A stretch of 64,000 nucleotides of DNA from Phycisphaerae bacterium (GCA_041658725.1 JBAZZQ010000008.1:18070-82069); one strand, 5' to 3'. Shown: positions 16,179 to 38,026, numbered from the stretch's first letter. The notes: generated from the sequence alone by a model not told the origin. Program-made: numbers and translations.

Positions 16179-16181
16179 AAA

Positions 16182-17324
16182 ATGAAAACAATTTCCTTCG
16201 GAATAATCGGTTGTGGTCTGATGGGCCGGGAATTTGCCAGCCTGACGGCAAGATGGTGTCATCTTCTCGATGTGGATTTTCAGCCGCGGATCGCGGCGAT
16301 CTGCGATACCAATGAGTCGCTGTTTGGCTGGTACAAAAACCATTTCCCGTCGATCGAACAATTCACGACGAATTATCGGGACCTGCTGGCCAATCCCCGG
16401 ATAGAAGCGATTTATTGCGCCATTCCTCATCATCTGCACCAACAGGTGTACTGCGACATCGTCCGGGCAGGAAAACATTTGATGGGGGAAAAACCGTTTG
16501 GGATCGACAAACCAGCCAACGACGCGATTTTGTCCTGCCTGAAGGAACATCCGAACGTTTTTGTTCGCTGCAGTTCGGAATTTCCATTTTATCCCGCTGC
16601 CCAGAAAATCTGCGATATGATCGAGAACAAAGCCTTCGGCAAAATCATCGAGGTCAACAGCGGTTATCTTCACTCCAGCGACCTGGACCCGAACAAACCC
16701 ATCAACTGGAAACGGATGGTCGAATTCAACGGTGAATACGGCTGCATGGGCGATTTGGGGATGCACGCCTGTCATATCCCTTTTAAAGCGGGTTGGAAAC
16801 CGGTCAACGTGCGCGCCCTGCTGGCCAAAATCATTACGGAGCGTCCCGATGGAAAAGGGGGGCAGGCTGCCTGCAAAACGTGGGACAACGCCACCCTGTG
16901 TTGCGAGGCCCGTGATCCCGACCGGGGTGAGCTATTTCCGATGATCCTCAAGACCCATCGGATCGATCCTGGCCAGAAGAACACATGGTACATTGAAATC
17001 AAGGGCACGAAGGTTTCGATGCGATTCAGCACCAAATTGCCCAAAACGCTTTTTTGGATGGACTACCAGGGCGGAGAACAAATCTGGCAGCAGATCGACA
17101 TGGGAAACGACACCGCTTTTAAAACCATCACCGGGGGTATTTTTGAAATCGCGTTTTCCGACGTGATCTTCCAGATGTGGGCCGCTTTTTTGTACGAATA
17201 CGTGCATGGAAAACCCCTTAAAAGATTTGCCGCTTGCGTGACTCCTCAGGAAACCGCCTGGACCCATGAGCTGTTTACCGCGGCCTTGGCCTCGCAGCGC
17301 GAAACAAAAACCGTTGAGATTTAA
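16182..17324 (+). CDS. Gfo/Idh/MocA family NAD(P)-dependent oxidoreductase
   Basis: N-terminal Rossmann ISFGIIGCGLMGREFA and a C-terminal alpha/beta domain. Confidence 0.8.
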   Translation: MKTISFGIIGCGLMGREFASLTARWCHLLDVDFQPRIAAICDTNESLFGWYKNHFPSIEQFTTNYRDLLANPRIEAIYCAIPHHLHQQVYCDIVRAGKHLMGEKPFGIDKPANDAILSCLKEHPNVFVRCSSEFPFYPAAQKICDMIENKAFGKIIEVNSGYLHSSDLDPNKPINWKRMVEFNGEYGCMGDLGMHACHIPFKAGWKPVNVRALLAKIITERPDGKGGQAACKTWDNATLCCEARDPDRGELFPMILKTHRIDPGQKNTWYIEIKGTKVSMRFSTKLPKTLFWMDYQGGEQIWQQIDMGNDTAFKTITGGIFEIAFSDVIFQMWAAFLYEYVHGKPLKRFAACVTPQETAWTHELFTAALASQRETKTVEI

Positions 17325-17327
17325 AAT

Positions 17328-18695
17328 ATGTTATTTTGTGGAATTGACATAGGCACATCGAACACCAAGGCGGTTGTCATTGACGCCGAGGGTGAGCTTC
17401 GCGGCCGTATCACTATTCCTCTCGGAGTGGAAAGTCGCAAGGACGAATTTCCTGCCGCCGTGTGGGTAGATCATTTTCAAAAGGCCTTGAACTTTCTGGC
17501 GTCTCAGAGTCGTTCAGACGATCAATCTTTGTGCGTTGGGATTACAGCACAGGGTGGCAGCATGGTTCTTCTGGATGAAGAGTATCAACCCATTTCCACG
17601 GCCATGTCGTGGACGAAATTGGCATCCGATACTATCCTCCGGGAACTCAGGGGAGCAGTTTCGTTTGGGGATTTTTATGAGAAAACCGGGTGGCTGCCCG
17701 ATGGGTGGATGGGGGTATGCAAAGTCATGGAATTATTACGCAATAACCCTAAGCTCAAACAAAAATTAAAATATATCGCCTCGGTCCCTGACTTCGTTGG
17801 GGCCCAGGTATTCGGAACCTTTGTTACGGATGTCACACAGGCCCAAATCACCGGGTTTTATGATTTTACCCAAATGGACTGGATATCTGAAATTCTGAAC
17901 CGAATGGGACTGACCGGTGAGAACTTTGCCGAGGTAAAATCCGCCACGGAAATTCTGCGTGAAAATTTTTCCCTTTATTCCTCTCGGATAACTCTGATGA
18001 GCAGTTCACACGATCAATACGCCGTCATGCGCGCCTGTGGTCTGAATGACGATGGTTTTATGCTGGCAACAGGTAGTGCCTGGGTTGTCAACGGAAAATC
18101 GAAGCGTCCGTTGTATGACGGCGATTGTATGATTCATCCCGGCCGTGATTTGGAGGGTGGATTCGGGTACATTATATCATTTGAGGCCATAGGCAAGCAT
18201 TTTGATGAATTGTTAATCCATTTGGATGTGGATTATGATCTTTTGGCGGCAATGGCGGAGGATATTCAAAAGATAGAGATTCCGGATCAGCCCATTGATA
18301 CAACAACAATAAATTCATGCTCCGCCAAACCCGAAGCGATTCGGCGGTTTATGGAGGCGACCGTGGCTCGGGTACGCTTTGTTCTTGAAAAGAAACAATT
18401 ACTTGCGGGCATAAAAAAACTGCTTATGACCGGAGGATCCGTGGGAAATAATCTTTGGCCACAATTTCTGGCTGATATTTTGAATATCCCCGTGGATGCC
18501 GTCCGGTTCAATGAATTGACGGCCTATGGCGCCGCCCTTTTTTCCAGAACCGGGATGACCGGAGTGACCCCGCCCCACCGCTGGCCGATGGGAATAGCCG
18601 TTACGTTGTACGAGCCTCGGACTGCACGAAAATATGATGACTGGTTTTATGGCAAACAAGTTCCGTTGTTGGAATGGGGAGTTAACCGTGACTGA
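17328..18695 (+). CDS. FGGY-family carbohydrate kinase
   Basis: N-terminal GIDIGTSNTKAVV phosphate-1 motif. The C-terminal GGSVGNNLWPQFLADILNIPV...ELTAYGAAL is the FGGY C-domain signature. Confidence 0.65.
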   Translation: MLFCGIDIGTSNTKAVVIDAEGELRGRITIPLGVESRKDEFPAAVWVDHFQKALNFLASQSRSDDQSLCVGITAQGGSMVLLDEEYQPISTAMSWTKLASDTILRELRGAVSFGDFYEKTGWLPDGWMGVCKVMELLRNNPKLKQKLKYIASVPDFVGAQVFGTFVTDVTQAQITGFYDFTQMDWISEILNRMGLTGENFAEVKSATEILRENFSLYSSRITLMSSSHDQYAVMRACGLNDDGFMLATGSAWVVNGKSKRPLYDGDCMIHPGRDLEGGFGYIISFEAIGKHFDELLIHLDVDYDLLAAMAEDIQKIEIPDQPIDTTTINSCSAKPEAIRRFMEATVARVRFVLEKKQLLAGIKKLLMTGGSVGNNLWPQFLADILNIPVDAVRFNELTAYGAALFSRTGMTGVTPPHRWPMGIAVTLYEPRTARKYDDWFYGKQVPLLEWGVNRD

Positions 18696-20094
18696 TCGTC
18701 AAACAAAAAAATATTCCATCGGTTTTATTCCGGTGATGGCGAAACTCTACAAGAACCTTCTTCCGGATTTGCAGGTCCAACTCCAACAATTTTCCGGTCA
18801 GATTGGCCGGGCGTTATCGGATCGTCAACTGGAAATAAAAACCGGCCAGGTTGCCGTTGAGGATTCGGAAATTCGACGGCAAATCCGTTCGTTCGAAGAG
18901 GCGCATATCGACCTTCTGGTCATTGGGCACGTCAGTTATTGTCCGAGCGGGGAAATTCTTCCCGGATTGCTGAAAACGAAGTTGCCTGTGCTCCTCTGGC
19001 CGGCTCAGCCCATGCTTGAATTAAGCGGCAAGCATTACGATGGGGAGGCTATGATTCACAATCATGGCGTTCACGGAACGCAGGACCTGGCGAATATTTT
19101 GATGCGAAACAATCGCCCCTGTGGTGTTTTGCATGGCCATTACCGCCAACTGTCCTTCAAAAAAGAATTGCTCTCCTGGGTTCGGGCCGGTCGTGCAGTT
19201 ACTTCCATGAAATCATCCCGGCCGCTGGTTCTTGGAGGTCATTTTGAGCAAATGCTTGATCTTCAATTGGGAAAAACAAATTTTCCAAAAACCTTCGGCA
19301 TCCAATCGCGTGAAATATCGCTGAATGAATTTATCCAATCCGTGAAAACCGTTTTGGAAAAAGACATTAAGGCTGGAATTAATCGCTATCGATCCTGTTT
19401 TGAATTGGACAAACACCTGACCCAGACATTTCTTGAAAAAACGGCCCGCCATGACGTTGCCTTGCGAAATCTCATGCGCCAGCGCAAAAGTTCCGCCGTC
19501 GGAATCAATTTTCAGGCTTTATGCAACGATCCCCGAATCGGAGATGCACTGCACGTAGCGGCCAGTCTGCTTATGTCGGACGGGTTGGGTTACGCGGGGG
19601 AAGGCGATTGGGTTACCGCGATGCTCGTTTGTGGGCTAAGGTCGATCTCGCCAAGAGTGACGTTTACGGAAATTTTTTCCGTGGGTTATCGGGATAACCG
19701 CCTGGTGCTCCGCCACTGGGGAGAAGGAAATTTTGACTTGGCCAGAAAAAAACCTCTTCTTAAAATCAGTCAATTCAAAGATAAGCATCCCGCCGAATTC
19801 GCGGTCATGAATTTTGAATTTAAGCCAGGACTGGCGACTCTGGTCAACCTGAACGTTGGAAAGGACGGACATGCGCAAATCCTTTCCATCGCCGGCAGGA
19901 TTGCCCCCGAATCACTTTCCGCGGTGGATGGCCCGCGAGGGATATTCAAGCCAGACCGGAAGCAAATTTCCGAATTATTGAGCGACTACGCGTATCAGGG
20001 CGGCAGCCATCATCTGGTGATGGTTATGGAGCAGGCTGAGAATGTTTTGGACAAAATTTCAAAATTAACCGGCTGGAGGTATGTAAAGGTATAA
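18688..20094 (+). CDS. L-arabinose isomerase family protein (AraA-like sugar isomerase)
   Basis: GYAGEGDWVTAMLV and GGSHHLVMV match the AraA active-site regions (GFAGEGDWKTAAL; GGAHHTV). A GTG start overlaps the upstream stop (GTGA). Confidence 0.55.
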   Translation: MTDRQTKKYSIGFIPVMAKLYKNLLPDLQVQLQQFSGQIGRALSDRQLEIKTGQVAVEDSEIRRQIRSFEEAHIDLLVIGHVSYCPSGEILPGLLKTKLPVLLWPAQPMLELSGKHYDGEAMIHNHGVHGTQDLANILMRNNRPCGVLHGHYRQLSFKKELLSWVRAGRAVTSMKSSRPLVLGGHFEQMLDLQLGKTNFPKTFGIQSREISLNEFIQSVKTVLEKDIKAGINRYRSCFELDKHLTQTFLEKTARHDVALRNLMRQRKSSAVGINFQALCNDPRIGDALHVAASLLMSDGLGYAGEGDWVTAMLVCGLRSISPRVTFTEIFSVGYRDNRLVLRHWGEGNFDLARKKPLLKISQFKDKHPAEFAVMNFEFKPGLATLVNLNVGKDGHAQILSIAGRIAPESLSAVDGPRGIFKPDRKQISELLSDYAYQGGSHHLVMVMEQAENVLDKISKLTGWRYVKV

Positions 20095-20102
20095 CAAAAT
20101 TG

Positions 20103-20219
20103 AATATCCAATATCCGACACTCAACACCCAACATCCAAGTAAAGAAAACAAGAGACGCCGAATCCTTGCCCTTCTCTTCACTTGAGTGTTGGATGTCGA
20201 GTGTTGAATGTTGGATATT
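20103..20219. repeat. Heptamer-periodic hairpin element (ATATCCA/ACAYYCA units). The left arm is repeated at 60139-60176. It probably acts as a terminator or REP-like element.
   Basis: Left arm 20103-20141 and inverted right arm 20181-20219, each built from five 7-nt units. It lies 9 nt after the isomerase stop. Confidence 0.5.
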
Positions 20220-20252
20220 AAATTGAATTTCCTATTTATTGAAGGAGAATTT

Positions 20253-21062
20253 ATGAAAGACAATTTGTTTTTTTCACGGTTTTTTAGCGAGGGTCCTGTT
20301 TTGGTGGTGGCCGTCGATCATGGTTTGTTCGACGGTCCGGTTCCCGGAGTCCACCAGGTAAACAAAATTGCCGAAAATATCCATCCGGACATCGACGCCG
20401 TGCTGGTTTCCCCCGGAATGTTTCGACACCTCAAGGAGGATCTCTTTGGCAAACGTCATTGCCCCCAACCGATCGTTCGGATCAATTGGTCGAGCATCTA
20501 CTGCTTTTCCTGGGACTATCATGCGGGAGATACCGTAACGACTTATCAGCCAATGGACCTCTTGAAAATGGGAGTCCCCGTGGTTTTGATTTCCCTCTCC
20601 TTACGAACCGGATCAGAAGCGAGGGACGCCGAAAACGTAAAAATATTCGCCGACCTGTGCCGGCAGGCTCATGACCTGGGCATGATGGTGATCGGGGAAT
20701 ATTTTCCGGTGAACGATGAAAAACTCAACGTTGACGAGATGCACGAGGAGATCAAAATCGGATGCCGTATTCTTTTCGAATTGGGGGCCGATGTGATTAA
20801 AACCTTTCATACCCGCGACTTTGACAAAGTGGCGCAAGGTTGTCCTATCCCGATTCTGACCCTGGGCGGCAAGCGCGCCCCCTCGGACCTTGCCGCGCTG
20901 GAAATGGCTGAAATCCAGATTAAATCCGGGGCAGCGGGGATCGTCTTCGGGCGAAACGTCTTTCAGTCGCCCAAGCCCATTGCCCTGCAAAAGGCGATCC
21001 TGGACGTTTTAAAAAATAACGTTTCCGCCCGTCAGGCGGCCAAAAAACATGGACTAAAATAA
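20253..21062 (+). CDS. Class I (DhnA/FbaB-type) aldolase, DeoC/LacD superfamily
   Basis: VVAVDHG N-terminal motif. Schiff-base lysine context GADVIKT. Length 270 aa. RBS ggaga. Confidence 0.7.
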   Translation: MKDNLFFSRFFSEGPVLVVAVDHGLFDGPVPGVHQVNKIAENIHPDIDAVLVSPGMFRHLKEDLFGKRHCPQPIVRINWSSIYCFSWDYHAGDTVTTYQPMDLLKMGVPVVLISLSLRTGSEARDAENVKIFADLCRQAHDLGMMVIGEYFPVNDEKLNVDEMHEEIKIGCRILFELGADVIKTFHTRDFDKVAQGCPIPILTLGGKRAPSDLAALEMAEIQIKSGAAGIVFGRNVFQSPKPIALQKAILDVLKNNVSARQAAKKHGLK

Positions 21063-21078
21063 AAAAGGAAATAGAACC

Positions 21079-22329
21079 ATGAACGAAAAACTTATTCGAG
21101 TGGGTGTGCTGGGGGTTGGACGCGGCCGGGGTTTTGCGCTCGGCGCCGGTCCGCATCTTGGTATGCAACTGGTTGCCCTGTGTGATACCTGGGAAGAAAA
21201 ACTTCGCCAGGTCGGTAAGGAATTAAACGTTACAACCTACACCGATTATCAAAAATTCCTGGCCCACGACATGGACGCGGTGATCCTCGCGAATTTTTTT
21301 CACGAGCACGCCCCATTCGCAATCCAGGCACTTGCCGCCGGAAAGCACGTCATGAGCGAAACCGCCGCATGCTTTACACTAGGGGAGGGAGTGGCACTCA
21401 TAGAGGCTGTGGAAAAGTCGGGCAAAACCTACATGTTCGCCGAGAATTATCCGTACATGGTATTCAATCAGGAAATGCGCCGTATCTACCACACCGGAAA
21501 GCTTGGTGAGGTTCAATACGCCGAGGGTGAATACATTCACCCCATGTCCGCAGAGTTTTACAACTCTATCTCCTGTGGTTACAATCACTGGCGAAACTGG
21601 CTTCCCCTTATTTATTACAGCACCCATGCCCTGGCGCCGGTGATGTATGTAACCGACACCTGGCCGACGAAAGTCAACGGATTCATTGTTCCATACGACC
21701 CCGAGGATAAAGAACATTTTCAAAAAACCGTCCGGCGAAGCGACCTGGCCTGGGCTATCATGCTCCACATGGACAACCAATCGCTGGTCCGACTCACCGG
21801 CCTGTCGCAACGGGGGCATGGGAATTGGTACCGCTTCCACTGCCAAAAGGGCTTGATGGAAAATCTGCGATATGGCAATCCTGACATGGTCCGCATCCAT
21901 CGCGAGTCCTATGACCGGAAAAAAGGCGAGCCGGAGGAAATGATTTGTCTTCCCGAATTTCCCGAGTACCACGACCGTGCGACGCAAAGCGGCCACGGCG
22001 GCGGGGATTTTTTCATGAACCTGCATTTCGCCCAGTCCATTCGCACCGGGAAACCCCCATATTTCGATGTCTACCGCGGGGTGGCCATGTCCATTATCGG
22101 GTCGCTAGCCTACCGGTCCGCTCTGAACAACTCCAATACCGTCGAGGTTCCCGATTTTCGAAAACCTGCCCAACGGGTCAAATACAAAAACGATCATTGG
22201 AACCCCGACCCGAAGCGTTACAAAAAAGGTTACCCCAAATCCAGTATTCTCGGCGACATCAAACCCCCGGCCAGCGGGTTCGCCTTCGCCCATAAATGCT
22301 GGAAGAAAGCCGGATACCACGGCGAATAG
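21079..22329 (+). CDS. Gfo/Idh/MocA family oxidoreductase
   Basis: IRVGVLGVGRGRGFA Rossmann start. It carries a long C-terminal extension typical of glycoside-hydrolase-109-like/MocA members. Confidence 0.75.
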   Translation: MNEKLIRVGVLGVGRGRGFALGAGPHLGMQLVALCDTWEEKLRQVGKELNVTTYTDYQKFLAHDMDAVILANFFHEHAPFAIQALAAGKHVMSETAACFTLGEGVALIEAVEKSGKTYMFAENYPYMVFNQEMRRIYHTGKLGEVQYAEGEYIHPMSAEFYNSISCGYNHWRNWLPLIYYSTHALAPVMYVTDTWPTKVNGFIVPYDPEDKEHFQKTVRRSDLAWAIMLHMDNQSLVRLTGLSQRGHGNWYRFHCQKGLMENLRYGNPDMVRIHRESYDRKKGEPEEMICLPEFPEYHDRATQSGHGGGDFFMNLHFAQSIRTGKPPYFDVYRGVAMSIIGSLAYRSALNNSNTVEVPDFRKPAQRVKYKNDHWNPDPKRYKKGYPKSSILGDIKPPASGFAFAHKCWKKAGYHGE

Positions 22330-22342
22330 GGAGGAAACTTCC

Positions 22343-23428
22343 ATGCCGCTATTGTACAAGGATGACTGGGACGAAACCAAAGACCGATACCGCGCCTGGT
22401 GGAACGGCGAGTATATCGGTCGCTGCGGATTGTTCGTTACCGCGCCGCGAGAGGGAATCCCCAACACCCCCCCGCCGACACCGCCCGAAGACCCGGAAGA
22501 ACGCTGGACGGACCTGGACTACATGTGTAAAGCCCAGGACTATGAATTTCGAAGGACGTATTATGGAGCCGAAGCGTTTCCCAATTATTATCCCGGTTAT
22601 CCTGGCCATACGGCCATTCCGGCTTTTTTAGGATGCAAGACGACCCTGGACCATGAAACCGGATGGTGGGAGCCTTTTTTGAGCGGCCCAGAATGGAGAA
22701 TTAAAGACATCGTTCTGAACAAAGAATCGCGATGGTGGAAGTTTGCCATCGAGCAATTAGACCGAATGACAAACGATGCCCTGGGAAAAGCTATTCCCAG
22801 TACCGGCGCGTTCGGAGGATCAGGTGATACTCTGGCAGCCATTCGTGGCACAGACCGACTCCTCATCGACGTGATGGAACGGTCTGATCTTGTTCGCCAA
22901 ACCGAAGAGTACCTGATGGACATGTGGTTTGAGGTTTATGATACATTTTACGACATTGTCAAAGAATCGACCGACGGCGGATCACAAGGATGGTTTCCAT
23001 TATGGGCCCCCGGAAAGTTCTATGGCGCGCAGAATGATTTTTCATACATGATCTCACCGGCCATGTTCCGCGACCTCTTTTTGGCCGTGATTCGCCGGCA
23101 AACTGAATTTTTGGATTATACGATCTACCACGTCGACGGGATCGGCGCCTTCGCCCACGTGCCCGCCTTGTGCGAACTTCCCAAACTCCAAGCCATTCAA
23201 ATTTTACCCGGTGACGGGAAACCCAGCCCGCTGCATTATCCCCAAGTGCTTAAAATCGTACAGCAGGCTGGAAAAAATCTTTGGATCATGATCGAACCAA
23301 ACGAAGTGGAACAGGCCCTCGCCCTGTTGTCAGCCAAAGGGTTGTTTATCCATACAACATGCAAAACGGAATCGCAAGCCCGGCAATTAATCGAAAATGT
23401 CAAAAAATGGTCCCGGAGACGAATATGA
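22343..23428 (+). CDS. Uroporphyrinogen decarboxylase (URO-D)-like family protein of unknown function
   Basis: Strong RBS gggagga. The size and the C-terminal region (HVDGIGAFAHVPALCELPKLQAIQI) resemble URO-D/MtaA-like TIM barrels. The assignment is tentative. Confidence 0.45.
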   Translation: MPLLYKDDWDETKDRYRAWWNGEYIGRCGLFVTAPREGIPNTPPPTPPEDPEERWTDLDYMCKAQDYEFRRTYYGAEAFPNYYPGYPGHTAIPAFLGCKTTLDHETGWWEPFLSGPEWRIKDIVLNKESRWWKFAIEQLDRMTNDALGKAIPSTGAFGGSGDTLAAIRGTDRLLIDVMERSDLVRQTEEYLMDMWFEVYDTFYDIVKESTDGGSQGWFPLWAPGKFYGAQNDFSYMISPAMFRDLFLAVIRRQTEFLDYTIYHVDGIGAFAHVPALCELPKLQAIQILPGDGKPSPLHYPQVLKIVQQAGKNLWIMIEPNEVEQALALLSAKGLFIHTTCKTESQARQLIENVKKWSRRRI

Positions 23429-24555
23429 ATTTAGGCAAGTCCGCAAAATTGGCATGGCAAACGATTCGCCAGGAACCGACGAAGGGAATTCCCTCCTGGA
23501 TGATTCTTGTGATGGAACATTCAATCATCGAGCGTTTTGCAGGCGTAGAACCGGGGGCCTATTGCAACGACCCGGAACCTGTTTACATCAAATTCCAGCA
23601 GTCCGTTGGAACCTGTATGTTGGATCAGTACATTCCAACCAATCCCCTGACTATAGGCAACCACGGTTATGAAAACACCGAAAAAGGCGCCACAACCGGG
23701 GCGGATAAAATTGTCCTCGACGGTCTGTTGATCGATTCCCCGGAAGCCGTCATCGAACATATAGAGACTTTTATTTTCCCGGAAATCTCAAAACAAATCT
23801 CCGCATATGACGAAACCCGTCATGTTCAGCAACTTTTACAGGAAGAAACTGACATTCAGAAAAAGCTTGGCCCAGGTATTTTAAAAGTACCTTATAACGC
23901 CAGTATTCCTTTCCTTCTTTATGGAACGTATGGGTATTCCGAATTCTTTATGGCCTATGCGTTGTACCCGGAAGTGATGGAAAAGTATTTTTCATTATCC
24001 GCGGACCTGGGCCTTATTAAAAATCGGGGGCTCGCCCGTGCCTTTCAGGAGGGAAATCTTCCTCCTCTGCTGCGGGTCGATAGTGATATGGCCGACTCGC
24101 GGGGCACTTTGGTTGATATCAAATCCCTGGATAAAATCTGGTTCCCTCACTTTGCTCGCAGTCTGGAGCCTTTACTCCAAGCCGGCATTAAGATGATCTG
24201 GCACTGTGACGGAAACCTTATGCAGATGGTCCCTCGATTGCTGGATGCCGGGCTGTGTGGGTTCCAGGGTTTCCAATACGAAGACGGAATGGATTATGAA
24301 AAAATCTGTAAAATGAAAGCCCGGAATGGAAACGACCTTATCATTATTGCCGGGGTTTCTGTAACTCGGACGCTCCCCAAAGGAAAACCGGACGATGTTA
24401 AACGTGAATTGAAATGGCTGGTTGAAAAGGGTCCTAAAACCGGATTATTCCTCGGTGGGTCCAGTTCGATTACTCCGGGAGTGAGCTATGAGAATATTAA
24501 AACCCTGGTCGATGGCCTGCTTCATTACCAGGAACATGGCAGGGCCGGCCTATGA
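23424..24555 (+). CDS. URO-D-like (methyltransferase MtaA/CmuA-like) family protein
   Basis: The C-terminal block HCDGNLMQMVPRLLDAGLCGFQGFQYEDGMD is typical of the URO-D superfamily. The start overlaps the upstream stop (ATGA). Confidence 0.5.
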
Positions 24556-25604
24556 AACCGGTGATCCAAATCACTCCTTACGACCGGGCATTTTACGATG
24601 AATTCATTCGGGATTTTCTGCCTCCCGCCGTGATCGATATCCATACTCACGTCTGGCTGGAGCAATTCCGTTCCACAGACCCCAACCCGCGTCCACTGGT
24701 AACATGGCCCGCACGGGTCGCTTCGGAAAATTCCATCGAACATTTGCGGGAAACTTACGAATTGATGTTTCCCGGCAAAATTGTTACCCCGCTTGTTTTT
24801 GCCAATGTCCTATCCCGGAAAGACTGTCTGGAGGCAGGAAATGACTATATCGCCGAGTGCATGAAAACATGGAATCTGCCCGGTTTGATCTGGTCCACTC
24901 CCGACTGGAACGGGCAGGAACTGGAAACGAAGATTCGTGCCGGTAACTTTCGTGGGGCAAAATCCTATCTCGCCCTGGCCCCAGCCCATATCCCCGATTC
25001 GGAAATCACCATCTATGATTTCTTCCCCCCTCCGCAATTGGAAGTGTTAAATCATCATGGATGGATCATGATGCTGCATATCCCCCGTCCGGGACGTTTG
25101 CGCGATCCGGTGAACTTGCGGCAGATGATCGAAATTGAGAAAAAATATCCAAACATCAAACTGATTATCGCCCACGTCGGGCGCGCCTATTGTCCCGAGG
25201 ATATCGGAAACGCCTTCGAGACGCTGGCTGACACTCGATCCCTGATGTTCGACATATCCGCCAATACTAATCGTATCGTCTTTGAAAAACTTATTTCCGA
25301 GGTGGGTTCTGAGCGTATTTTATTTGGAAGCGATCTACCCATCGCCCGAATGCGGATGCGGCGTATCTGCGAAAACGGCAGATATGTCAATCTGGTTCCT
25401 CGTGGATTGTACGGCGACGTTTCGGCCGATCCTAACATGCGTGAAGTGGAAGTTGACGACGCGGAGCAGATGACATTCTTTCTGTATGAAGAAATCAAGG
25501 CCTTTCGTCTTGCCGCCGAGAAGGCCGGACTTAACAAAAACGACATAGAAGATATCTTTTGCCATAATGCCCGTAGACTTATTCAGGACACGATGGAAAC
25601 CTGA
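24552..25604 (+). CDS. Amidohydrolase-2 family metal-dependent hydrolase (TIM barrel)
   Basis: DIHTHVW N-terminal metal-binding motif and an HVGRAY histidine later in the sequence. Translationally coupled to the upstream gene. Confidence 0.65.
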   Translation: MKPVIQITPYDRAFYDEFIRDFLPPAVIDIHTHVWLEQFRSTDPNPRPLVTWPARVASENSIEHLRETYELMFPGKIVTPLVFANVLSRKDCLEAGNDYIAECMKTWNLPGLIWSTPDWNGQELETKIRAGNFRGAKSYLALAPAHIPDSEITIYDFFPPPQLEVLNHHGWIMMLHIPRPGRLRDPVNLRQMIEIEKKYPNIKLIIAHVGRAYCPEDIGNAFETLADTRSLMFDISANTNRIVFEKLISEVGSERILFGSDLPIARMRMRRICENGRYVNLVPRGLYGDVSADPNMREVEVDDAEQMTFFLYEEIKAFRLAAEKAGLNKNDIEDIFCHNARRLIQDTMET

Positions 25605-25788
25605 TGATGTCATCCTGAGCGTCTTCACGAAGGAATGAGATTGCTTCGTCGCTACGCTCCTCGCAATGACAGTGCCTGAACGGGTACAACATTTTTTATT
25701 TATTGCCCTTGACTGCGCCGGGAATGTTCTTTATACTAAACAGTATGTAGTTTAATAAGAACACTCGATTTTGTGGAAAAAGGGACGT

Positions 25789-26343
25789 ATGAAACCGGAA
25801 GAATTCGGAATCCATCTGGAGCGGATGCGGAGCACGATGGGCTTGGGATTGCGCGAATTGGGGCGCAAGGCCGGCATGTCGCCGGGTGCGCTTTCGGCGA
25901 TTGAAAAGGGTCAAAGCAGCCCCACGCTGGCCACGTTGCATAAAATCCTTCGCGCCTTGGGGACCGATTTCGCGGGATTTTTCGCAACCTCTGCCCAAAA
26001 TGGCGCTGATCCGGTATTCGAGGCCAAAACCCACCGGATGGCCCAGGACGCGTATCGTCAATATGTCTTTCTGTTTCCCAAACGCGAGGATATGCGATTT
26101 GAGATGGTATTGGAAACGATTTTGCCGACGGAAAAAAAACCGGAATGGGAGACGCATGATTGTGATCTCGGAGGATATATCATTTCTGGTGGGCCGGTCA
26201 AAGTGGAAATCGAGGGGGTGGGCAAATGGACGCTTAAAAAAGGGGATTCCTTTTACATCAAGTCGGGTCATAAACACCGGGCAACGAATATGGGAAATAA
26301 CCCTTTAAAAATGGTTACGACTTTTGATCCACCACGTTATTAA
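25789..26343 (+). CDS. XRE-family HTH transcriptional regulator with a C-terminal cupin domain
   Basis: HTH LRELGRKAGMSPGALSAIEKGQSSPTLATLHKILRALG. The cupin barrel has GDSFYIKSGHKHRATNMG. Confidence 0.75.
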   Translation: MKPEEFGIHLERMRSTMGLGLRELGRKAGMSPGALSAIEKGQSSPTLATLHKILRALGTDFAGFFATSAQNGADPVFEAKTHRMAQDAYRQYVFLFPKREDMRFEMVLETILPTEKKPEWETHDCDLGGYIISGGPVKVEIEGVGKWTLKKGDSFYIKSGHKHRATNMGNNPLKMVTTFDPPRY

Positions 26344-26358
26344 TTTTGGAGAAAATGA

Positions 26359-27681
26359 ATGAACAAAGAGTGTTTGGCGATGGACGGCGGCAGTAAGGCA
26401 GTGGGAAATCTGGGGCCTTACCCCAGCAAGATCGGTCAGGACGAGTTGCTGGAACTTTTGAGCCTGTGGGAATTTTCCCCGCAAAACGCGGGAAAGATTC
26501 GGGATATTATCGAAGGCGAAAAGAACCTGCGGGGTCCGCACCTGTTTCGCTATTACAACCCCAAACCGAGCAAGGTGGCCGAGGCGGAAGTCGCGATGGC
26601 CAAGCTTATCGGAACCAAGTGTTGTCTGGCCGTCAATTCCTGCACTTCGGCTTTGGTGGCCGCTTACCGGGCGTTGGGGATCGGGGCGGGTGATGAGGTG
26701 ATCGTACCGGCCTATACGTTTTTTGCCACGGCAGCGACGGTCATCGCTTCCAACGCCATTCCCGTGATCGTCGATGTTGACGACACGTTGACATTGGATC
26801 CCAAAGCGATCGAAAAGGCCATCACCCGCCGCACCAAAGCCATCGTCCCTGTTCACATGCGCGGAGCGCCGGCCCAGATGGACGCGATTTTGGATATTGC
26901 CAAACGCAAGGGTATTGCGGTTATCGAGGATGTGGCGCAGGCTTGCGGCGGGAGCTTTAACGGCAAGCGTCTGGGCAGCCTCGGGACGATGGGGTGTTTC
27001 AGCTTTGATTACTACAAAATAATCGTCAGCGGTGAGGGCGGATTTATCACGACCAACGACGAGTGGCTATATACGCGAGCCCAAAGCTGGCACGACACAG
27101 CCGCTTGTTGGCGACCGGACCGGTTTGCCAACGAGCAGAGGAAAGGCGAACTCTTTTGCGGAGAAAACTACCGCATGAGCGAATTGGAAGGCGCGGTGGC
27201 GGTAGCCCAAATCCGAAAAACGGACCAGACGCTCCTGGGATATCGTCAAGCCTGTCAGTGGATCAAAACGGGAATCGATAAATTTCCCGGCCTGTCGTTC
27301 CGCCGACTCACCGACGAAAAGGGTGACGCGGGCATTTGCCTGGTCCTCTACCTGCCCGATGCGGACAAGACGAAACGGGCCATGGAGGCCATGAAGGCCG
27401 AGGGCGTACCGGCGGGAGGAATCTACGATTCCAAAGTCCGCGACTGGCACGTATTCTGTTACTGGGAACATATTCTGGATAAAAAGACGGTGGCCGGCGA
27501 CGGTCTGCCCTGGAGCGCGATACCGGCAGAGGAGCTTCCGAAGTATTCACGCGACATGTGCCCCAAGACGCTGGATTTGCTTGCACGGTCGATCCATATC
27601 GAAATCAATCAGAGCTATACCCAAAAAGATTGCCAGGCAATCTCCGAAGGTATCAATAAAGTATTGAGGAGCGTGCTATGA
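26359..27681 (+). CDS. DegT/DnrJ/EryC1/StrS family PLP-dependent aminotransferase
   Basis: LAVNSCTSALVAAYRALGIGAGDEVIVPAYTFFATA and FSFDYYKII (Lys region) are hallmark DegT motifs. Confidence 0.85.
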   Translation: MNKECLAMDGGSKAVGNLGPYPSKIGQDELLELLSLWEFSPQNAGKIRDIIEGEKNLRGPHLFRYYNPKPSKVAEAEVAMAKLIGTKCCLAVNSCTSALVAAYRALGIGAGDEVIVPAYTFFATAATVIASNAIPVIVDVDDTLTLDPKAIEKAITRRTKAIVPVHMRGAPAQMDAILDIAKRKGIAVIEDVAQACGGSFNGKRLGSLGTMGCFSFDYYKIIVSGEGGFITTNDEWLYTRAQSWHDTAACWRPDRFANEQRKGELFCGENYRMSELEGAVAVAQIRKTDQTLLGYRQACQWIKTGIDKFPGLSFRRLTDEKGDAGICLVLYLPDADKTKRAMEAMKAEGVPAGGIYDSKVRDWHVFCYWEHILDKKTVAGDGLPWSAIPAEELPKYSRDMCPKTLDLLARSIHIEINQSYTQKDCQAISEGINKVLRSVL

Positions 27682-28469
27682 AACTGGGACTGTGTCTGGA
27701 AATGGTCTTTACCAAACTACCATTTGAAAAACGGATAGAGAAGGCGGCGAAACTGGGCTTTAAATTCATTGAGATGTGGTTTACCGATATGACGTATAAG
27801 GGAACTGCCGATGAGTTGGCAAGGATCGCCAAAAAAAATAAGGTGACGATCACCAATACCGTTATCGGCTCTCCCGATGGTTCTATTGGAGGTGGGCTGA
27901 CTAACCCGAAGAATCGAAAACTGTGGCTTGAACGAACCCGATCTACTCTGGATTATACCCGGCGGGCGAATATCCCTGCTACGATCGTCTGCACGGGAAA
28001 CACGGTCGAGGGACTTAGCGAAAAGAAGATGTTCCAATCGGTGGTTGATGGTCTGAAGGCGACGGCGGACCTGGCCGAAAAGGCGGGGATCACTCTCCTT
28101 CTTGAACCCCTGAACACGAAATATGATCACGCCGGCTACTGGTGCGATGGGAGTGACAAGGGAGCAGAAATCTGCCGGGCCGTCGGTTCGAAGCAATTGA
28201 AAATGCTCTTCGACTGCTACCACATGCAGATCATGGAGGGCGACCTGGTCAATCATATCAAGAAGCACATCAGCGTGATCGGGCATTTCCATTCCGCTGG
28301 TGTACCCGGACGCCACGAACTCTTTACCGGCGAAACAAATTATCCGCTGCTGCTCAAAGAGATTGAAAAGGCCGGATATAAGGGCGTCTTCGCGATGGAA
28401 TACGCACCCTCTATGCCGGATGAAAAATCCCTGAAGCTGACGCTGGAGTATTTGAAAAGGAGCAAGTAA
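27678..28469 (+). CDS. Sugar phosphate isomerase/epimerase, xylose-isomerase-like TIM barrel (hydroxypyruvate isomerase Hyi-like)
   Basis: MKLGLCLEMVF...GFKFIEMW and LLEPLN...FDCYHMQIMEGD conserved blocks. Confidence 0.75.
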   Translation: MKLGLCLEMVFTKLPFEKRIEKAAKLGFKFIEMWFTDMTYKGTADELARIAKKNKVTITNTVIGSPDGSIGGGLTNPKNRKLWLERTRSTLDYTRRANIPATIVCTGNTVEGLSEKKMFQSVVDGLKATADLAEKAGITLLLEPLNTKYDHAGYWCDGSDKGAEICRAVGSKQLKMLFDCYHMQIMEGDLVNHIKKHISVIGHFHSAGVPGRHELFTGETNYPLLLKEIEKAGYKGVFAMEYAPSMPDEKSLKLTLEYLKRSK

Positions 28470-29885
28470 ATGAAACTGGAAACCATAAAAATTCTTTCGG
28501 ACCAGGAGATCAAACAGATTCACGAGGCGTCGATGGACATCCTTGTCAACTGTGGAGTCGAGATCGGCAGCCCGAAAATGCTTTCATTTCTGAAAGACAA
28601 GGGGCTGAAAATCGAAGAGGATTCTGTCCATTTTACCCGCGAATGCATCCAGGATGCGTTAAGTAAAATCCCTCCGACGTTCGATGTCTTTGATCGGGAG
28701 GGACGATATGTCTTTACGCTGGGAGATGGTGTGCCGAAAATCGCGGCTGGACATAACGCCGTCTTTTGGGTCGATAGCGAGACAGGCCGGACACGGCCAT
28801 CAAAAGTGTCCGACATAGAACAGTTTGCCCGAATCTGTCAGGATTTGGAATATATCCACATGATTGGAATTCCCGTAATGCCCCAGGATGTGCCTATTCC
28901 CCAAGCCTCCTTGCTGTACGGTGTAAAGGCCGTCATGGAAAACAGCGCCAAACCAATCTACTTTTCGACAGATAACCTGAAAATCAACCACTCGATCATT
29001 GAGATGCTCCAGACTGTCTTTCCTGGGGATTTACGGCATCAGGTGTATGGAATTAGTCAGCTTTCTCCGACCAGTCCCCTGATGTGGGAAGGAGGAGTGC
29101 TTGACGCCATCATGGATACTGTGGGCACGGGCGTACCGTTGGCGATTTTACCGGAACCCAATGCCGGCGTCTCGGCTCCTTTTACCCTCGCGGGACTCCT
29201 GACGATGAACAACGCCGAGTGCCTGTCGGGACTGGTAATGGTTCAGTTGCTTGAACCGGGCGCCAAAGTCATGTACGCCAATTCCTGGACGACGACGGAT
29301 ATGCGAACTGGGGCGGCTCTGGTGGGTTCCACCGAAACCACCATCTGTCGAATAGCGGCGGCTCAATTGGCCAGATTTTACAAAACACCCTCGCACACCA
29401 CCGCCCCAAATTCCGACAATCATGCCCACGATGAGCAAAATGCCTGGGAAAAAACCTTCAGTATGTTCTGCTCGGTGGCGGCGGGACACGATCTGGTCGT
29501 CAACTGCGGAATGTTTGCCGCCGGCTTGACCTGCAGCCATGAGCAATTGATCATGGATGAGGAAATCTCCGCCATGTCGAAGCGCATTGCGGAAGGAGTG
29601 CTTGTAAATCAGGAAACCATTGCCTGTAATCTGATCAAACAGATGGGCCACCAGCCGGAGTATTTAACGAGCGAGCATACCATGCGGTGGCTCCATTCCA
29701 AAGAATATCTATCGCCGCGGGTCTCGGTCCGTGGACCGCGAGCCACCTGGATGACGGCGGGAGGTAAGGATACTTACCAAATGGCGCGAGAGGCGGCCAA
29801 TAAATATAAACATTTTTCAGGTTCCCCGTTATCTTCCGCAAGAGCGGTAAAAATCAAACAGATCATAGAACAATTCGGGCGATAA
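28470..29885 (+). CDS. MttB-superfamily (trimethylamine methyltransferase-like, non-pyrrolysine) protein
   Basis: The N-terminus LSDQEIKQIHEASMDILVNCGVEI, the length (471 aa) and the overall pattern match the COG5598/MttB family. There is no in-frame amber codon. Confidence 0.65.
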   Translation: MKLETIKILSDQEIKQIHEASMDILVNCGVEIGSPKMLSFLKDKGLKIEEDSVHFTRECIQDALSKIPPTFDVFDREGRYVFTLGDGVPKIAAGHNAVFWVDSETGRTRPSKVSDIEQFARICQDLEYIHMIGIPVMPQDVPIPQASLLYGVKAVMENSAKPIYFSTDNLKINHSIIEMLQTVFPGDLRHQVYGISQLSPTSPLMWEGGVLDAIMDTVGTGVPLAILPEPNAGVSAPFTLAGLLTMNNAECLSGLVMVQLLEPGAKVMYANSWTTTDMRTGAALVGSTETTICRIAAAQLARFYKTPSHTTAPNSDNHAHDEQNAWEKTFSMFCSVAAGHDLVVNCGMFAAGLTCSHEQLIMDEEISAMSKRIAEGVLVNQETIACNLIKQMGHQPEYLTSEHTMRWLHSKEYLSPRVSVRGPRATWMTAGGKDTYQMAREAANKYKHFSGSPLSSARAVKIKQIIEQFGR

Positions 29886-30056
29886 ATGGAAAACCTCCAG
29901 ATATGACCGATTCTTTAAGAGGCACGACCGTAAGGGAGTGTTCTTACCTCCGCCCGAAAACCTTGGCACACACAGGTTACGTCATAGTCACTAAAATCGT
30001 TTTCTTTTCCCGACCAAAAGGTTAAAATCATGTTGTTTTTAAGATAAGGATTTTAA

Positions 30057-31379
30057 ATGAATAGGTCAGGTTCGCACGATGCTTCTTTTCAATGGCTTGA
30101 ACAAAATCGATTCGGACTTTTCATACACTGGGGCCTTTATTCCCTGCCCGCTCGGCATGAGTGGATCCAAAAATTAGAAGCAATCTCACCCGAAACATAC
30201 GATCAATACTTCAGGCACTTCGATCCTGACCTTTACGATCCGAACCTTTGGGCAAAATCCGCCGCCGATGCCGGTATGCAATATTTTTGTATCACCGCCA
30301 AGCATCATGAGGGCTTTTGTCTGTGGGATTCTGATTTTACAGACTTTAACGTAACCAAAACACCTTGCGGCAAAGATGTTCTTACGCTGATGGTGAAGGC
30401 CTTTCGCGATCACGGTTTGCGGACCGGGTTGTATTACTCTTTGATCGACTGGCATCACCCGGATTTCGTGATCGACTCGGCGCATCCGCTATCGAATCAT
30501 CCGCAACGGAACCAGATGAATGAAAAAAGAGACCAGAAAAAGTACATTCAATATCTACACGCGCAGGTGCGGGAACTGCTGACCCGATATGCTCCGGTGG
30601 ATATCTTATTTTTTGATTTCAGTTACCCTAAGAAATTTGCCTGGCCACCCAATATGGAAGATACCTGGGTCGGAAAATCCCGAGAAGACTGGGACAGTCT
30701 GAATCTGCTGAAAATGATCCGACAGATTTCCCCCAACACGTTAATCAATGATCGTCTGGACCTTAATGAGATGGAAGGCGGATGGGATTATCGAACGCCG
30801 GAACAATTCGAGCCGCGAAAATGGCTGGAATTCGAAGGCAAACGCGTTCCATGGATCACCTGTTATACATTTAGCGGGTCCTGGGGGTATCATCGCGAGG
30901 AATCCACCTGGAAGTCGGTCGAACAGTTAGTCCAGACATTGATTAACGTCACCAGTAAAGGCGGGAGTTTGCTTTTAAATGTGGGGCCGACTGGGCGGGG
31001 CGAGTTTGACCAGAGGGCTTTGGATCGCCTGAAAGGGATTGGCGAGTGGTTAAAACGTCATGGTCGATCCATCTATGGATGTACCGCCGCCCCGGATGAT
31101 CTTACTCCACCCCCTCAATGCGTATATACATATAACCCCCAAACCAATCGACTCTATGTTCATGTGTACGCCTGGCCCTGCCTCCACCTGCATCTGGCAG
31201 GATTGGGACATCGGGTCGAATATGCCCAACTCTTAAACGATGCCTCCGAAATTCAAATCGGATTAAGTGATTGGTTTGCCGGCCAGACAACCGGGGGCGA
31301 CCTCAATACATTGACCTTAACCCTGCCCATTCAAAAACCGAATGTAGCTGTGCCGGTCATCGAATTGATTTTAAAATAA
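30057..31379 (+). CDS. Alpha-L-fucosidase, glycoside hydrolase family 29
   Basis: FGLFIHWGLYSLPA and the surrounding GH29 catalytic N-domain. Length 440 aa. Confidence 0.85.
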   Translation: MNRSGSHDASFQWLEQNRFGLFIHWGLYSLPARHEWIQKLEAISPETYDQYFRHFDPDLYDPNLWAKSAADAGMQYFCITAKHHEGFCLWDSDFTDFNVTKTPCGKDVLTLMVKAFRDHGLRTGLYYSLIDWHHPDFVIDSAHPLSNHPQRNQMNEKRDQKKYIQYLHAQVRELLTRYAPVDILFFDFSYPKKFAWPPNMEDTWVGKSREDWDSLNLLKMIRQISPNTLINDRLDLNEMEGGWDYRTPEQFEPRKWLEFEGKRVPWITCYTFSGSWGYHREESTWKSVEQLVQTLINVTSKGGSLLLNVGPTGRGEFDQRALDRLKGIGEWLKRHGRSIYGCTAAPDDLTPPPQCVYTYNPQTNRLYVHVYAWPCLHLHLAGLGHRVEYAQLLNDASEIQIGLSDWFAGQTTGGDLNTLTLTLPIQKPNVAVPVIELILK

Positions 31380-34981: not shown

Positions 34982-36124
34982 CTATATTCTTTTATCTCCC
35001 TGTGCCAATTTCACCATCGTCTGATAATTCGCCAATGTTTGAGCGGTAATCGTTCTGCCGTAGGGTGAGGCAGACGGCATCAAAACGAATCCTCGGCCCT
35101 TGCCATCGGTCCCTTCGCGCAGAGCCTTTTCAACCTTTTTCTGAAATTCCTCGGTAGCAAGGTTTTCAATATCCGCGATCTCGATATTTCCAAACAGGAC
35201 CATGTCCCGGCCGTATTGTCGGCGAACATCGATCAATTCCATGTCGCCCTGATCCGGCGGCTCGATCGGGTCCAGGCCATCGGGTTTGATGGCGGTGATA
35301 TGCGGCAAAATATTCCGCAACCGTCCGTGCGAATGAAGCCGGGCGTAACCGCCGTGCCGTTGGATCATCTTCACCATCGGTCCGGTGTACGTGACGACAT
35401 ATTCCTCAAACAGGCGGGGAGGCAGATAAGGTTCCGCGGCATATTCCGGCCCGTAGATTCGCCACAGTCGGCCGGGGAACTCCCGAGCTACGATTTCGGT
35501 GGTGCGATGGATATCACGGGCACATTTCCGCAGCATTTGATGAAACAACTCCGGCTCGGTCAAGGCCAGGATCGTATAATCCTCCATTGAAAACTGGCTG
35601 GCCGCTTGGCAGATCGGATCACCGGTATCCACCATAACGATACCAGCCTCACCGAGGTCTTTTTCCAGTTCAAACAGATTCGAGCAATCGACCGTGTGGT
35701 CGAATATCTCATCCGGAAGTTTCAGGTACGCTCGCAGATCGTCCGCACTTTTCAACAAGTGTTCAATCACCCAGACGGTGTCCACCTCCGCATCCCGCCG
35801 AGTCACCTGCGTCAACGTCCGGCCCGCCGCCATCACCTGTGTCCGGGTAAACCGCGATTGTCCCTCCTCCCATGTTTTAAGTGAAAAATATTTTTCTCGG
35901 TATTCCGGATGAGCGAAACGCATAATTGGAGCGCCTGCGCGAATGACGTCGGTGTGGTTTTCCGCCAAGTCCAGCAAAGGCCGCCACGACGGGTCATTAT
36001 AAATATTGTAAGAGTCCGGGTCGTCCGGGTTGTGTTTACGGAAAGTGATCTCGTAGAAATTTACCGCCGGCCGGTCCACCGGCTCTCCTCGCAATGTCGC
36101 CATCAATCGTTCACGTCGTGTCAT
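34982..36124 (-). CDS. Uroporphyrinogen decarboxylase (URO-D) family protein
   Basis: The N-terminus MTRRERLMATLRGEPVDRPAV is the classical URO-D start. Length 380 aa. Confidence 0.7.
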   Translation of the reverse strand: MTRRERLMATLRGEPVDRPAVNFYEITFRKHNPDDPDSYNIYNDPSWRPLLDLAENHTDVIRAGAPIMRFAHPEYREKYFSLKTWEEGQSRFTRTQVMAAGRTLTQVTRRDAEVDTVWVIEHLLKSADDLRAYLKLPDEIFDHTVDCSNLFELEKDLGEAGIVMVDTGDPICQAASQFSMEDYTILALTEPELFHQMLRKCARDIHRTTEIVAREFPGRLWRIYGPEYAAEPYLPPRLFEEYVVTYTGPMVKMIQRHGGYARLHSHGRLRNILPHITAIKPDGLDPIEPPDQGDMELIDVRRQYGRDMVLFGNIEIADIENLATEEFQKKVEKALREGTDGKGRGFVLMPSASPYGRTITAQTLANYQTMVKLAQGDKRI

Positions 36125-37510: not shown

Positions 37511-37584
37511 GGCCGTGTAGCTCAGATGGTTAGAGCATGGGATTCATAAACCCAAGGTCGTCAGTTCGATTCTGACCGCGGCCA
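37511..37584 (+). tRNA. tRNA-Met (anticodon CAU). G1-C72 is paired, so it is elongator Met or tRNA-Ile2(k2CAU). The 3' CCA is not encoded.
   Basis: The cloverleaf was checked by hand. Acceptor GGCCGTG/CGCGGCC. D-arm GCTC/GAGC. Anticodon loop TTCATAA with U33 and A37. T-arm GTCAG-TTCGATT-CTGAC. Confidence 0.85.
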
Positions 37585-37595: not shown

Positions 37596-37850
37596 CTAAT
37601 TGTCAATAGGTTCTGACAGAAACACTTCTGTCGGTTGAGTGGCGGAAGGCTCGCGTAACAAATGTGTAACAGAAATGTTTTCCAGGGATTTCCTGGTTGC
37701 CTCACGCGTTCGCTCCAACAGATCATCACTGACGGCAAGATAGAAGGTTCGAGTGGTCTCAAAACTGGCATGACCTGCCATTCGCATGACGTCCAACTCC
37801 CGCAACCCGTGGGAAAGCCAATTGCTGAGGCCTGCTCGACGTTCACTCAC
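37596..37850 (-). pseudogene. Truncated tyrosine recombinase/phage integrase (C-terminal ~84 aa only), adjacent to the tRNA-Met 3' end.
   Basis: It has box II HGLRE (HxLR) and the catalytic Tyr context GHASFETTRTFYLAVSDD. The N-terminal ~250 aa are absent, and upstream frames contain stops. Confidence 0.6.
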
Positions 37851-38026
37851 GTTACGGCCTGCGCACTCGCCAAGTGACTTTGCATCACCCTCTACCCCGG
37901 AGGCTCCAACGACGGGATTACTCCCGACATTGCTCCGATTGCTACCGGCAGGAGCGAAAGTTGCCGGGTGGGACTTGCACCCACTGAAGTTCTACGCCGT
38001 TCCACGGCGCACTGAAAAATACGGGT

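Follow-up and report, generated by a model that had tools for sequence, protein, structure and literature searches.

What does a homolog of the corrinoid-dependent methyltransferase MttB do when its gene is translationally coupled to those of a DegT aminotransferase and a Hyi-like TIM barrel, with no corrinoid protein in sight? This question is raised by a four-gene cassette at positions 25789–29885 of a 64,000-nt stretch of DNA (hereafter, the window) from a Phycisphaerae metagenome-assembled genome (MAG). Its four open reading frames (ORFs) encode an XRE-cupin regulator, a DegT aminotransferase, a Hyi/OtnI-like TIM barrel and a non-pyrrolysine MttB homolog. An original prediction, made from the sequence alone, had offered two readings of this arrangement: either the MttB scaffold and the URO-D-like scaffolds encoded in the same window serve non-methyltransferase chemistry on sugars, or the corrinoid partner is encoded elsewhere. 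On the evidence set out below, we favor the second at a probability of roughly 0.45: the MttB homolog would be a substrate-specific methyl:corrinoid methyltransferase for a methylated amino-sugar-like or cyclitol-like solute, and the gene for its corrinoid partner would lie elsewhere.

The cassette is one transcription unit whose stop and start codons overlap or abut. The regulator gene (25789–26343, + strand; 184 amino acids) is followed, after 15 nt containing a GGAG motif, by the gene for a pyridoxal phosphate (PLP)-dependent aminotransferase of the DegT/DnrJ/EryC1 family (26359–27681, +). The stop codon of the latter overlaps the start of the gene for a xylose-isomerase-like TIM barrel (27678–28469, +) as ATGA, and at the next junction, TAAATG, the TAA stop directly abuts the ATG of the MttB homolog (28470–29885, +; 471 amino acids), with AAGGAG upstream. 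These junctions bear out the translational coupling of the last three genes that had been claimed, and the predicted gene identities agree with Pfam matches and with public gene calls, which reproduce the ORF coordinates, including the regulator start at 25789.

The MttB homolog matches the Pfam family MTTB (PF06253) over residues 3–464 (1.2e-85; 287.9 bits against a cutoff of 25) and is 100% identical to the NCBI entry 'trimethylamine methyltransferase family protein [Phycisphaerae bacterium]'. It is about equally similar to solved MttB (1.1e-53) and MtgB (2.7e-51), which are 31% identical to each other (PMC9842639), and reaches 346 bits against the 525-bit cutoff of TIGR02369, the NCBIfam MttB equivalog. 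An AlphaFold2 model (predicted local distance difference test, 84; predicted template modeling score, 0.85) aligns in Foldseek to Protein Data Bank (PDB) entries 9yce, 2qne and 7xcl with template modeling (TM) scores of 0.87–0.89 over ~480 columns at 27% identity. The predicted structure comprises a TIM barrel and a C-terminal dimerization extension that superimpose on those of MttB and MtgB. The ORF is uninterrupted, contains no in-frame UAG, terminates in TAA and can be aligned with MttB over its whole length; together with an asparagine, N314, in place of the pyrrolysine of MttB (Pyl334, which activates the substrate), this supports the earlier non-pyrrolysine assignment.

A superfamily search of 1.84 billion representatives returned 5,411 members at 50% clustering and placed the homolog in a distinct clade with graded sister clades at 47–31% identity. 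Placement relies on the signature columns of 130 superfamily representatives and on PDB similarity, rather than on a tree against MtcB, MtpB, MtyB and MthB. In this clade, the residues through which known members bind their substrates are replaced. In MtgB, Y97 and F356 make cation–π contacts with glycine betaine and R312 and H348 bind its carboxylate; the R312 arginine is conserved in all characterized non-pyrrolysine members (PMC13080624). The clade carries H95 and G352 at the first two positions and H309 and N345 at the others. E229 takes the place of MttB Met249, which lies over the cobalt, and MttB Tyr364, implicated in protonation, falls at V344/N345 and is not kept. Across 40 aligned clade members, none of these replacement residues varies. 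Because MtgB-like representatives read Y/R/H/Y at columns 95/309/345/352, the residue mapping is validated. With none of the four MtgB betaine residues retained and the arginine of characterized non-pyrrolysine members absent, the label 'glycine betaine or quaternary amine' that the original prediction had attached to the protein does not hold.

What the clade retains is of a different kind. When MttB is bound to MttC, the cobamide is hydrogen-bonded by the Gly110–Thr111 peptide and by Gly372 (PMC9842639). By alignment, as opposed to a structure of a complex, these correspond to G94–H95 and G352, and both glycines are invariant in the 40 members; the superfamily motifs D316, D321-x-Q323 and G347 are kept as well. 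The invariant G94 and G352, alongside the replaced betaine residues, argue that the protein keeps a predicted corrinoid-docking rim around a rebuilt pocket that would be polar and acidic. Low-confidence segments of the model occur only at residues 231–236, 275–286, 314–320 and 348–352, which are sequence-invariant loops at the barrel mouth; in the model these look as if a ligand, metal or partner were needed for their ordering. We also considered an MtaB-like zinc site formed by Glu229, His309 and Cys346, but sister clades do not share the cysteines specific to this clade, and we regard such a site as speculative. The signature extends beyond the clade: about 25 superfamily representatives share G94–H95, H309, D/N314, H318 and N345.

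Clade members are 62–77% identical, and their signature peptides occur in 136 species-level genomes from about 12 phyla. Within Planctomycetota, they are found in Phycisphaerae/Sedimentisphaerales, Pirellulales and Thermoguttaceae. Other hosts belong to Armatimonadota, Hydrogenedentota, Lentisphaerota, Kiritimatiellota, Verrucomicrobiota, Spirochaetota, Acidobacteriota, Chloroflexota and Latescibacterota, with further members in MAGs labeled Nitrospiraceae or Nitrospirales and in one Eubacteriales MAG; examples of complete genomes with the clade are CP070728.1, OY970194.1 and OW818698.1. To describe their surroundings, neighboring ORFs from 88 sequences were clustered, and same-strand partners within 7 kb were counted for the 47 MttB genes flanked by at least 5 kb on both sides. 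DegT stands beside MttB in 22 of these 47 loci, the Hyi-like TIM barrel in 21 and the two together in 19, so that the trio, whose co-occurrence the original prediction had proposed to check, recurs in other genomes. Less frequent partners are URO-D-like proteins (15/47), sodium:solute symporters (SSF; 12/47), GFO/IDH/MocA (GFO) proteins (12/47), the glycoside hydrolase GH36 (9/47), XRE-cupin regulators (8/47), AraA/FucI-like isomerases (5/47) and a second xylose-isomerase-like barrel, TIM2 (4/47). Typical gene orders are XRE, DegT, TIM, then TIM2, GFO or SSF, then MttB; MttB, DegT, TIM; and URO-D, URO-D, AraA-like, MttB.

The reverse view started from 80 metagenome loci with close DegT orthologs, 31 of which had enough downstream sequence. 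The TIM gene comes next in 28 of the 31 and MttB is present in 16; DegT and TIM thus make up a fixed pair that MttB joins frequently but facultatively. Five loci (L010, L030, L046, L052 and L058) carry tandem or multiple MttB clade genes, up to three in L058, which suggests paralogous specificities within one genome. Two families without Pfam matches recur as neighbors, one of ~1065 amino acids in seven loci (for example, L084, 6771–9968, −) and one of ~495 amino acids in five (L053, 6081–7568, −), and a 414-residue protein, also without a Pfam match, lies directly 3′ of MttB in an Armatimonadota genome (L001, 11575–12819, +).

The two enzymes of the fixed pair point to free sugars. The DegT protein belongs to DegT_DnrJ_EryC1 (PF01041; 9.7e-79, 265.6 bits), although it reaches no NCBIfam equivalog cutoff, and its PLP lysine is present, the lysine of an SFDyyK motif aligning with that of KdnA. 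KdnA, the 8-amino-3,8-dideoxy-octulosonate (Kdo8N) aminotransferase and an enzyme of the free-sugar type, is by a wide margin its nearest solved relative (PDB 5K8B; 1.2e-64, full length), followed by perosamine synthetases and then by free-cyclitol inosose aminotransferases; no KdnB-type dehydrogenase is present in the cassette. The TIM barrel belongs to AP_endonuc_2 (PF01261; 1.7e-37). Its best NCBIfam match is hydroxypyruvate isomerase Hyi (2e-48), then 2-oxo-tetronate isomerase OtnI (5.6e-44), both below cutoff (165 of 353 bits for TIGR03234 and 151 of 325 bits for NF043033), which supports membership at the family level only; its nearest solved relative is the Hyi/OtnI protein YgbM (PDB 1K77; 8.8e-18). 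Together, these similarities suggest a sequence on a free sugar in which an amine would be converted to a hydroxy-carbonyl compound and then to an isomerized ketol.

Other partners of the clade concur. The associated symporter is SGLT-like, matching vSGLT at 1.4e-83 and also human SGLT1/2, against 1e-11 to 1e-6 for choline transporters. Similarity links the GFO partner to levoglucosan, inositol and glycoside 3-dehydrogenases, TIM2 to xylose isomerase, and the AraA-like partner to the isomerases of sulfoquinovose and arabinose; IolC-like and IolG-like matches lie far below family cutoffs. Because of the symporter, the GFO proteins, the barrels and isomerases, the KdnA-like DegT, the Hyi/OtnI-like TIM and the sugar genes on either side of the cassette, the evidence indicates a neutral, sugar-like or cyclitol-like solute with an amine and a methyl decoration, and not a classical betaine. 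The 'on sugars' part of the original prediction thus gains from the synteny with the SGLT-like symporter, GFO dehydrogenases, xylose-isomerase-like barrels and GH36. All six known substrates of the superfamily carry N-methyl groups (PMC12155760). In view of this family precedent and of the coupling to DegT, an N-methyl group is favored over an O-methyl group, although an O-methyl sugar or cyclitol is possible.

If the MttB homolog is a methyltransferase, a partner has to be sought. Window ORFs of at least 200 amino acids and small ORFs were scanned with profiles, and neither a B12-binding protein nor a pterin-type methyltransferase was found among them; a scan for the DxHxxG...SxL...GG motif and a jackhmmer search seeded with verified MtaC likewise detected no corrinoid protein there. 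The absence from the window of a corrinoid protein and of MtgA, noted at the outset, is upheld, the former by all three scans and the latter by the profiles. The same motif scan and jackhmmer search were applied to 168 neighborhoods (88 sequences and then 80 more), and a corrinoid protein appeared in one, an MtaC directly before MtaB (L024, 19520–20191). We rejected this MtaC as a partner of the clade, as its position directly before MtaB marks an unrelated methanol system, 8 kb from the cassette. The locus itself, from the Eubacteriales MAG, has its mtaC–mtaB pair (19520–21418) 8 kb downstream of a full cassette encoding XRE, DegT, TIM, TIM2, GFO, SSF, MttB, a PfkB kinase, a polyol dehydrogenase, a fused E1 dehydrogenase, a thiolase and an alcohol dehydrogenase.

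Unlinked partners have precedents. In Eubacterium limosum, the genes for MtyB and MtcB each have just a transporter gene and a regulator gene for company, and MtqC and MtqA/RamQ lie in separate clusters (PMC8604678); in R. pomeroyi, mtgB is unlinked from mtgCD (PMC12478193). Because of these layouts, a missing linked corrinoid protein is less telling than it might seem. Of the two alternatives first proposed, a partner encoded elsewhere is favored by the MtcB/MtyB layout and by the invariant G94 and G352, and non-methyltransferase chemistry is less favored. The prediction had named clustering with MtgB together with an adjacent corrinoid protein and methyl-THF methyltransferase as contrary evidence; signature columns and PDB similarity do not group the homolog with MtgB, and no partner lies adjacent at the 168 loci.

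We propose that the cassette is autoregulated and that its four genes serve the catabolism of a sugar-like or cyclitol-like solute bearing a methyl group and an amine. The MttB homolog would act first, as the methyltransferase component MT1, holding the substrate in its polar His/Glu/Asn pocket and passing one methyl group to Co(I); the latter would belong to a corrinoid protein from another part of the genome, which could be a shared hub as in E. limosum. The KdnA-like DegT would then turn the exposed amine into a carbonyl, and the Hyi/OtnI-like TIM barrel would isomerize the hydroxy-carbonyl product for entry into the upstream GFO/isomerase/kinase/aldolase route. The XRE-cupin protein would sense the solute and control the promoter through an inverted repeat over its −10 hexamer. 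What the analyses establish is which proteins the genes encode, how the operon is built, its synteny, the fold of the MttB homolog and the residues kept or replaced; from these, methyl transfer, the corrinoid partner, the succession of steps and the substrate are inferred.

Several observations weigh against this proposal. The known non-pyrrolysine members demethylate, to our knowledge, only quaternary amines, from which they remove one methyl; a single demethylation of a quaternary amine would yield no primary amine for DegT. About half of the MttB loci lack DegT, and about half of the DegT loci lack MttB; with an association facultative in both directions, demethylation does not have to precede deamination, and the methyl group may be carried elsewhere than on the amine. 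At position 318, the branch of the clade has His, where Lys is found in 71% of the other tabulated representatives. No recurrent corrinoid protein, activase or pterin methyltransferase was found across the 168 neighborhoods, and no cobalamin riboswitch in the window or in seven related loci; co-localization is, in general, frequent (PMC10418091), and to have no dedicated partner in any of 168 loci is extreme. At the zinc-motif position, the URO-D-like proteins of the window read HVDG, HCDG, HSHG and DCDG, with Asp or His for Cys, so the His-x-Cys motif is not kept. Finally, 80 of 80 loci listed, from the 136 genomes, come from MAGs, to which no physiology is attached.

In the main rival reading, the MttB fold has been recruited for corrinoid-independent sugar chemistry with no methyl transfer, for instance as a metal-dependent isomerase, lyase or hydrolase using His95, His309, His318 and Glu229. 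We consider this unlikely, but less so than any other alternative. It would account for the replacement of every known substrate-binding residue and of the widely conserved Lys318 throughout the branch, for the lack of a dedicated corrinoid protein, activase (168 loci) or B12 riboswitch (window and seven loci), for an MttB gene embedded among and translationally coupled to sugar enzymes, and for invariant barrel-mouth loops whose low model confidence could reflect an absent ligand or metal; the clade also occurs in lineages with aerobic members, such as Armatimonadota, Acidobacteriota and Pirellulales. Set against it are the retention of both cobamide-contact glycines, of the dimerization-loop region and of the superfamily motifs, and the fact that an unlinked corrinoid partner is a documented layout. 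A cysteine-containing metal site is weakened by the absence of the clade-specific cysteines from sister clades, and the literature searched contains no report of a superfamily member that works independently of a corrinoid. Moreover, MtaA-like genes are frequent neighbors, some with a zinc motif: the URO-D-like subfamily that flanks MttB in other genomes (subfamily c11) keeps the MtaA-type H-x-C-G motif (L003, 11516–12640; L006, 11435–12571; and 13 other loci), the only one to do so among the URO-D-like groups compared.

More doubtful is a role in O-demethylation of sugar or cyclitol methyl ethers, such as pinitol/ononitol-type compounds or O-methyl deoxyhexoses, with DegT and TIM handling a separate amino decoration. 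A His/Glu pocket, possibly with a metal, might then activate the ether oxygen as MtaB activates methanol, and the pocket is indeed predicted to be polar and acidic instead of an aromatic cage. GH36 α-galactosidase, the SGLT-like symporter, the IolG-like GFO, an IolC-like PfkB kinase and the xylose-isomerase-like barrels would fit the catabolism of galactosyl-cyclitols or methyl sugars, but the IolC-like and IolG-like assignments suffer from their sub-cutoff scores. MttB often lacks DegT and is accompanied by URO-D-like and AraA-like genes, and in rhizopine metabolism methylated inososes are substrates of a free-cyclitol aminotransferase that works with a GFO-family dehydrogenase (PMC6668481). 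However, all six characterized superfamily members act on N-methyl groups, and unactivated alkyl methyl ethers are poor methyl donors. Least probable of all is an ordinary osmolyte or quaternary-amine demethylase, acting on a non-acidic betaine-like compound beside a functionally meaningless DegT and isomerase, which has family precedent and the public annotation as a trimethylamine methyltransferase family protein behind it but is opposed by the translational coupling to sugar enzymes, by synteny kept across about 12 phyla at 62–77% identity, by a transporter that is SGLT-like and not BCCT-like or choline-transporter-like, and by the lack of an aromatic cage and of an Arg312 equivalent.

Putative control elements precede the cassette. 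A terminator-like hairpin with a T-run (25672–25687, +), 3′ of the upstream Amidohydro_2 gene, separates it from the upstream operon, and a sigma-70-like promoter, TTGACT-17-TATACT (25709–25737, +), is predicted before the regulator gene from a match to 10 of 12 consensus positions. Around its −10 hexamer lies an inverted repeat, GAATGTTCTT / AAGAACACTC (25722–25766, no strand assigned), a candidate operator of the XRE-cupin protein, which has a PuuR-like architecture (HTH_3, 4.6e-11; Cupin_2, 3.7e-11; both from Pfam). The window contains three copies of the operator-like motif GARTGTTCTT, where 0.25 would be expected: two copies make up the inverted repeat and the third (GAGTGTTCTT; 29936–29945, +) lies between MttB and a GH29 α-L-fucosidase gene (30057–31379, +). 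TGTTC...GAACA half-sites also precede XRE-cupin genes of other phyla (L003, L006 and L009). The regulator probably represses its promoter through the repeat bracketing the −10 hexamer, and in this genome the GH29 gene may belong to the same regulon. Despite the operator-arm copy upstream of it, we rejected GH29 as a conserved member of the cassette, as it stands beside the clade only in this genome.

The window around the cassette is rich in sugar genes. Upstream, a sugar-catabolic string (14031–25604, +) encodes DeoR, a class-III aminotransferase, a GFO protein, an FGGY kinase, an AraA-like isomerase and a DeoC/LacD class-I aldolase, then a GFO/GH109-like protein, two URO-D-like proteins and Amidohydro_2; downstream of the cassette, the window contains a FucI-like gene in addition to the GH29 fucosidase. 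The GFO/IDH/MocA protein before the URO-D-like pair (21079–22329) also matches the GH109 C-terminal domain in Pfam annotations and may be an NAD-dependent glycosidase and not a simple dehydrogenase. Four URO-D-like proteins are present, as predicted, with weak matches. The first (22343–23428, +) has no Pfam match and is related to subfamily c11; the others lie at 23425–24555 (+), 34982–36124 (−) and 42940–44043 (+, start approximate), and Pfam E-values range from 7e-11 to 3e-4. Three of the four score 22–32 bits against the NCBIfam MtaA/CmuA families TIGR01463 and NF004889, whose cutoffs are 235–400.

Elsewhere in the window, an RCC1-repeat β-propeller protein carries a C-terminal type I dockerin domain (12752–13894), and a group II intron D1–D4 match of 100 bits (37847–37986, −) lies ~260 nt from a tRNA gene (37511–37584, +). 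The segment 48001–50000 has a G+C content of 0.39, compared with ~0.50 elsewhere in the window, and may be an acquired island; it lies beside genes for an N6/N4 DNA methylase (47876–48772) and a dockerin-domain protein (49658–50647).

The superfamily counts 5,411 representatives against six known physiological substrates, all trimethylamine or acidic quaternary amines, and the clade offers a well-defined, widespread and experimentally approachable entry into its uncharacterized bulk. The conserved operon context, invariant pocket residues and sugar-type transporter make a substrate hunt tractable. We found no description of this clade, or of an MttB homolog with DegT or Hyi-like genes, in the literature searched; CdmB, the chloromethane enzyme, turned out not to belong to the superfamily. 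We tentatively suggest, with somewhat less confidence than in the methyltransferase assignment itself, that the clade and the wider H95/H309/H318/N345 branch are the first MttB-superfamily lineage with a neutral methylated sugar, amino sugar or cyclitol as substrate. If so, the breakdown of glycans and sugars in Planctomycetota, Armatimonadota, Hydrogenedentota, Lentisphaerota and further phyla of glycan degraders would be linked to methyl transfer through corrinoids, or to a corrinoid-independent offshoot of such transfer. With a methylated sugar or cyclitol as substrate, the family's chemistry would be widened, and carbohydrate degradation would gain a B12-dependent step in abundant, mostly uncultured bacteria of sediment, soil and groundwater. 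Such a substrate would also advise caution against counting every metagenomic mttB-like gene as methylamine or betaine metabolism.

Known systems resemble parts of the cassette. KdnA transaminates a free sugar, as the DegT protein is predicted to do, but it is biosynthetic and its partner KdnB has no counterpart here. In rhizopine metabolism, MosB is a DegT-family enzyme, MocC has the TIM-barrel fold and MocDE/F account for the demethylation step. The mos/moc genes for rhizopine (3-O-methyl-scyllo-inosamine) in S. meliloti combine a GFO/IDH/MocA dehydrogenase with the free-cyclitol aminotransferase MosB on a methylated inosose (PMC6668481), but their demethylation is oxygenase-based and not MttB-based, and the likeness is an analogy of logic only.

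Among superfamily members, MttB of M. barkeri (PDB 7XCL/7XCN) shares with the homolog its fold (TM score, 0.89), length, C-terminal dimerization region and 27% identity, as well as glycines at both cobamide contacts and the S-D...D-x-Q...E-K-T motif around the pyrrolysine loop. It differs in that the clade has Asn314 for pyrrolysine, has lost Tyr364, has an invariant Glu for Met249 and is encoded in a bacterial sugar operon with no adjacent MttC. MtgB of D. hafniense (PDB 2QNE/9YCE) is likewise a non-pyrrolysine protein of the same fold (TM score, 0.87) and 27% identity, from which the clade departs by Y97H, R312H, H348N and F356G and by having no adjacent MtgC or MtgA. MtcB, MtyB, MtpB and MthB of E. 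limosum act on acidic quaternary amines, keep the Arg312 equivalent that binds the acidic group (PMC13080624), are served by MFS transporters and are not coupled to sugar enzymes, whereas in the clade this position is an invariant His309. The likeness to these enzymes lies in the arrangement of their genes: the gene for a substrate-specific MT1 is grouped with those for a transporter and a regulator, and the genes for the corrinoid protein and the downstream methyltransferase lie elsewhere (PMC8604678). By analogy, the organization of the cassette resembles these 'spoke' operons.

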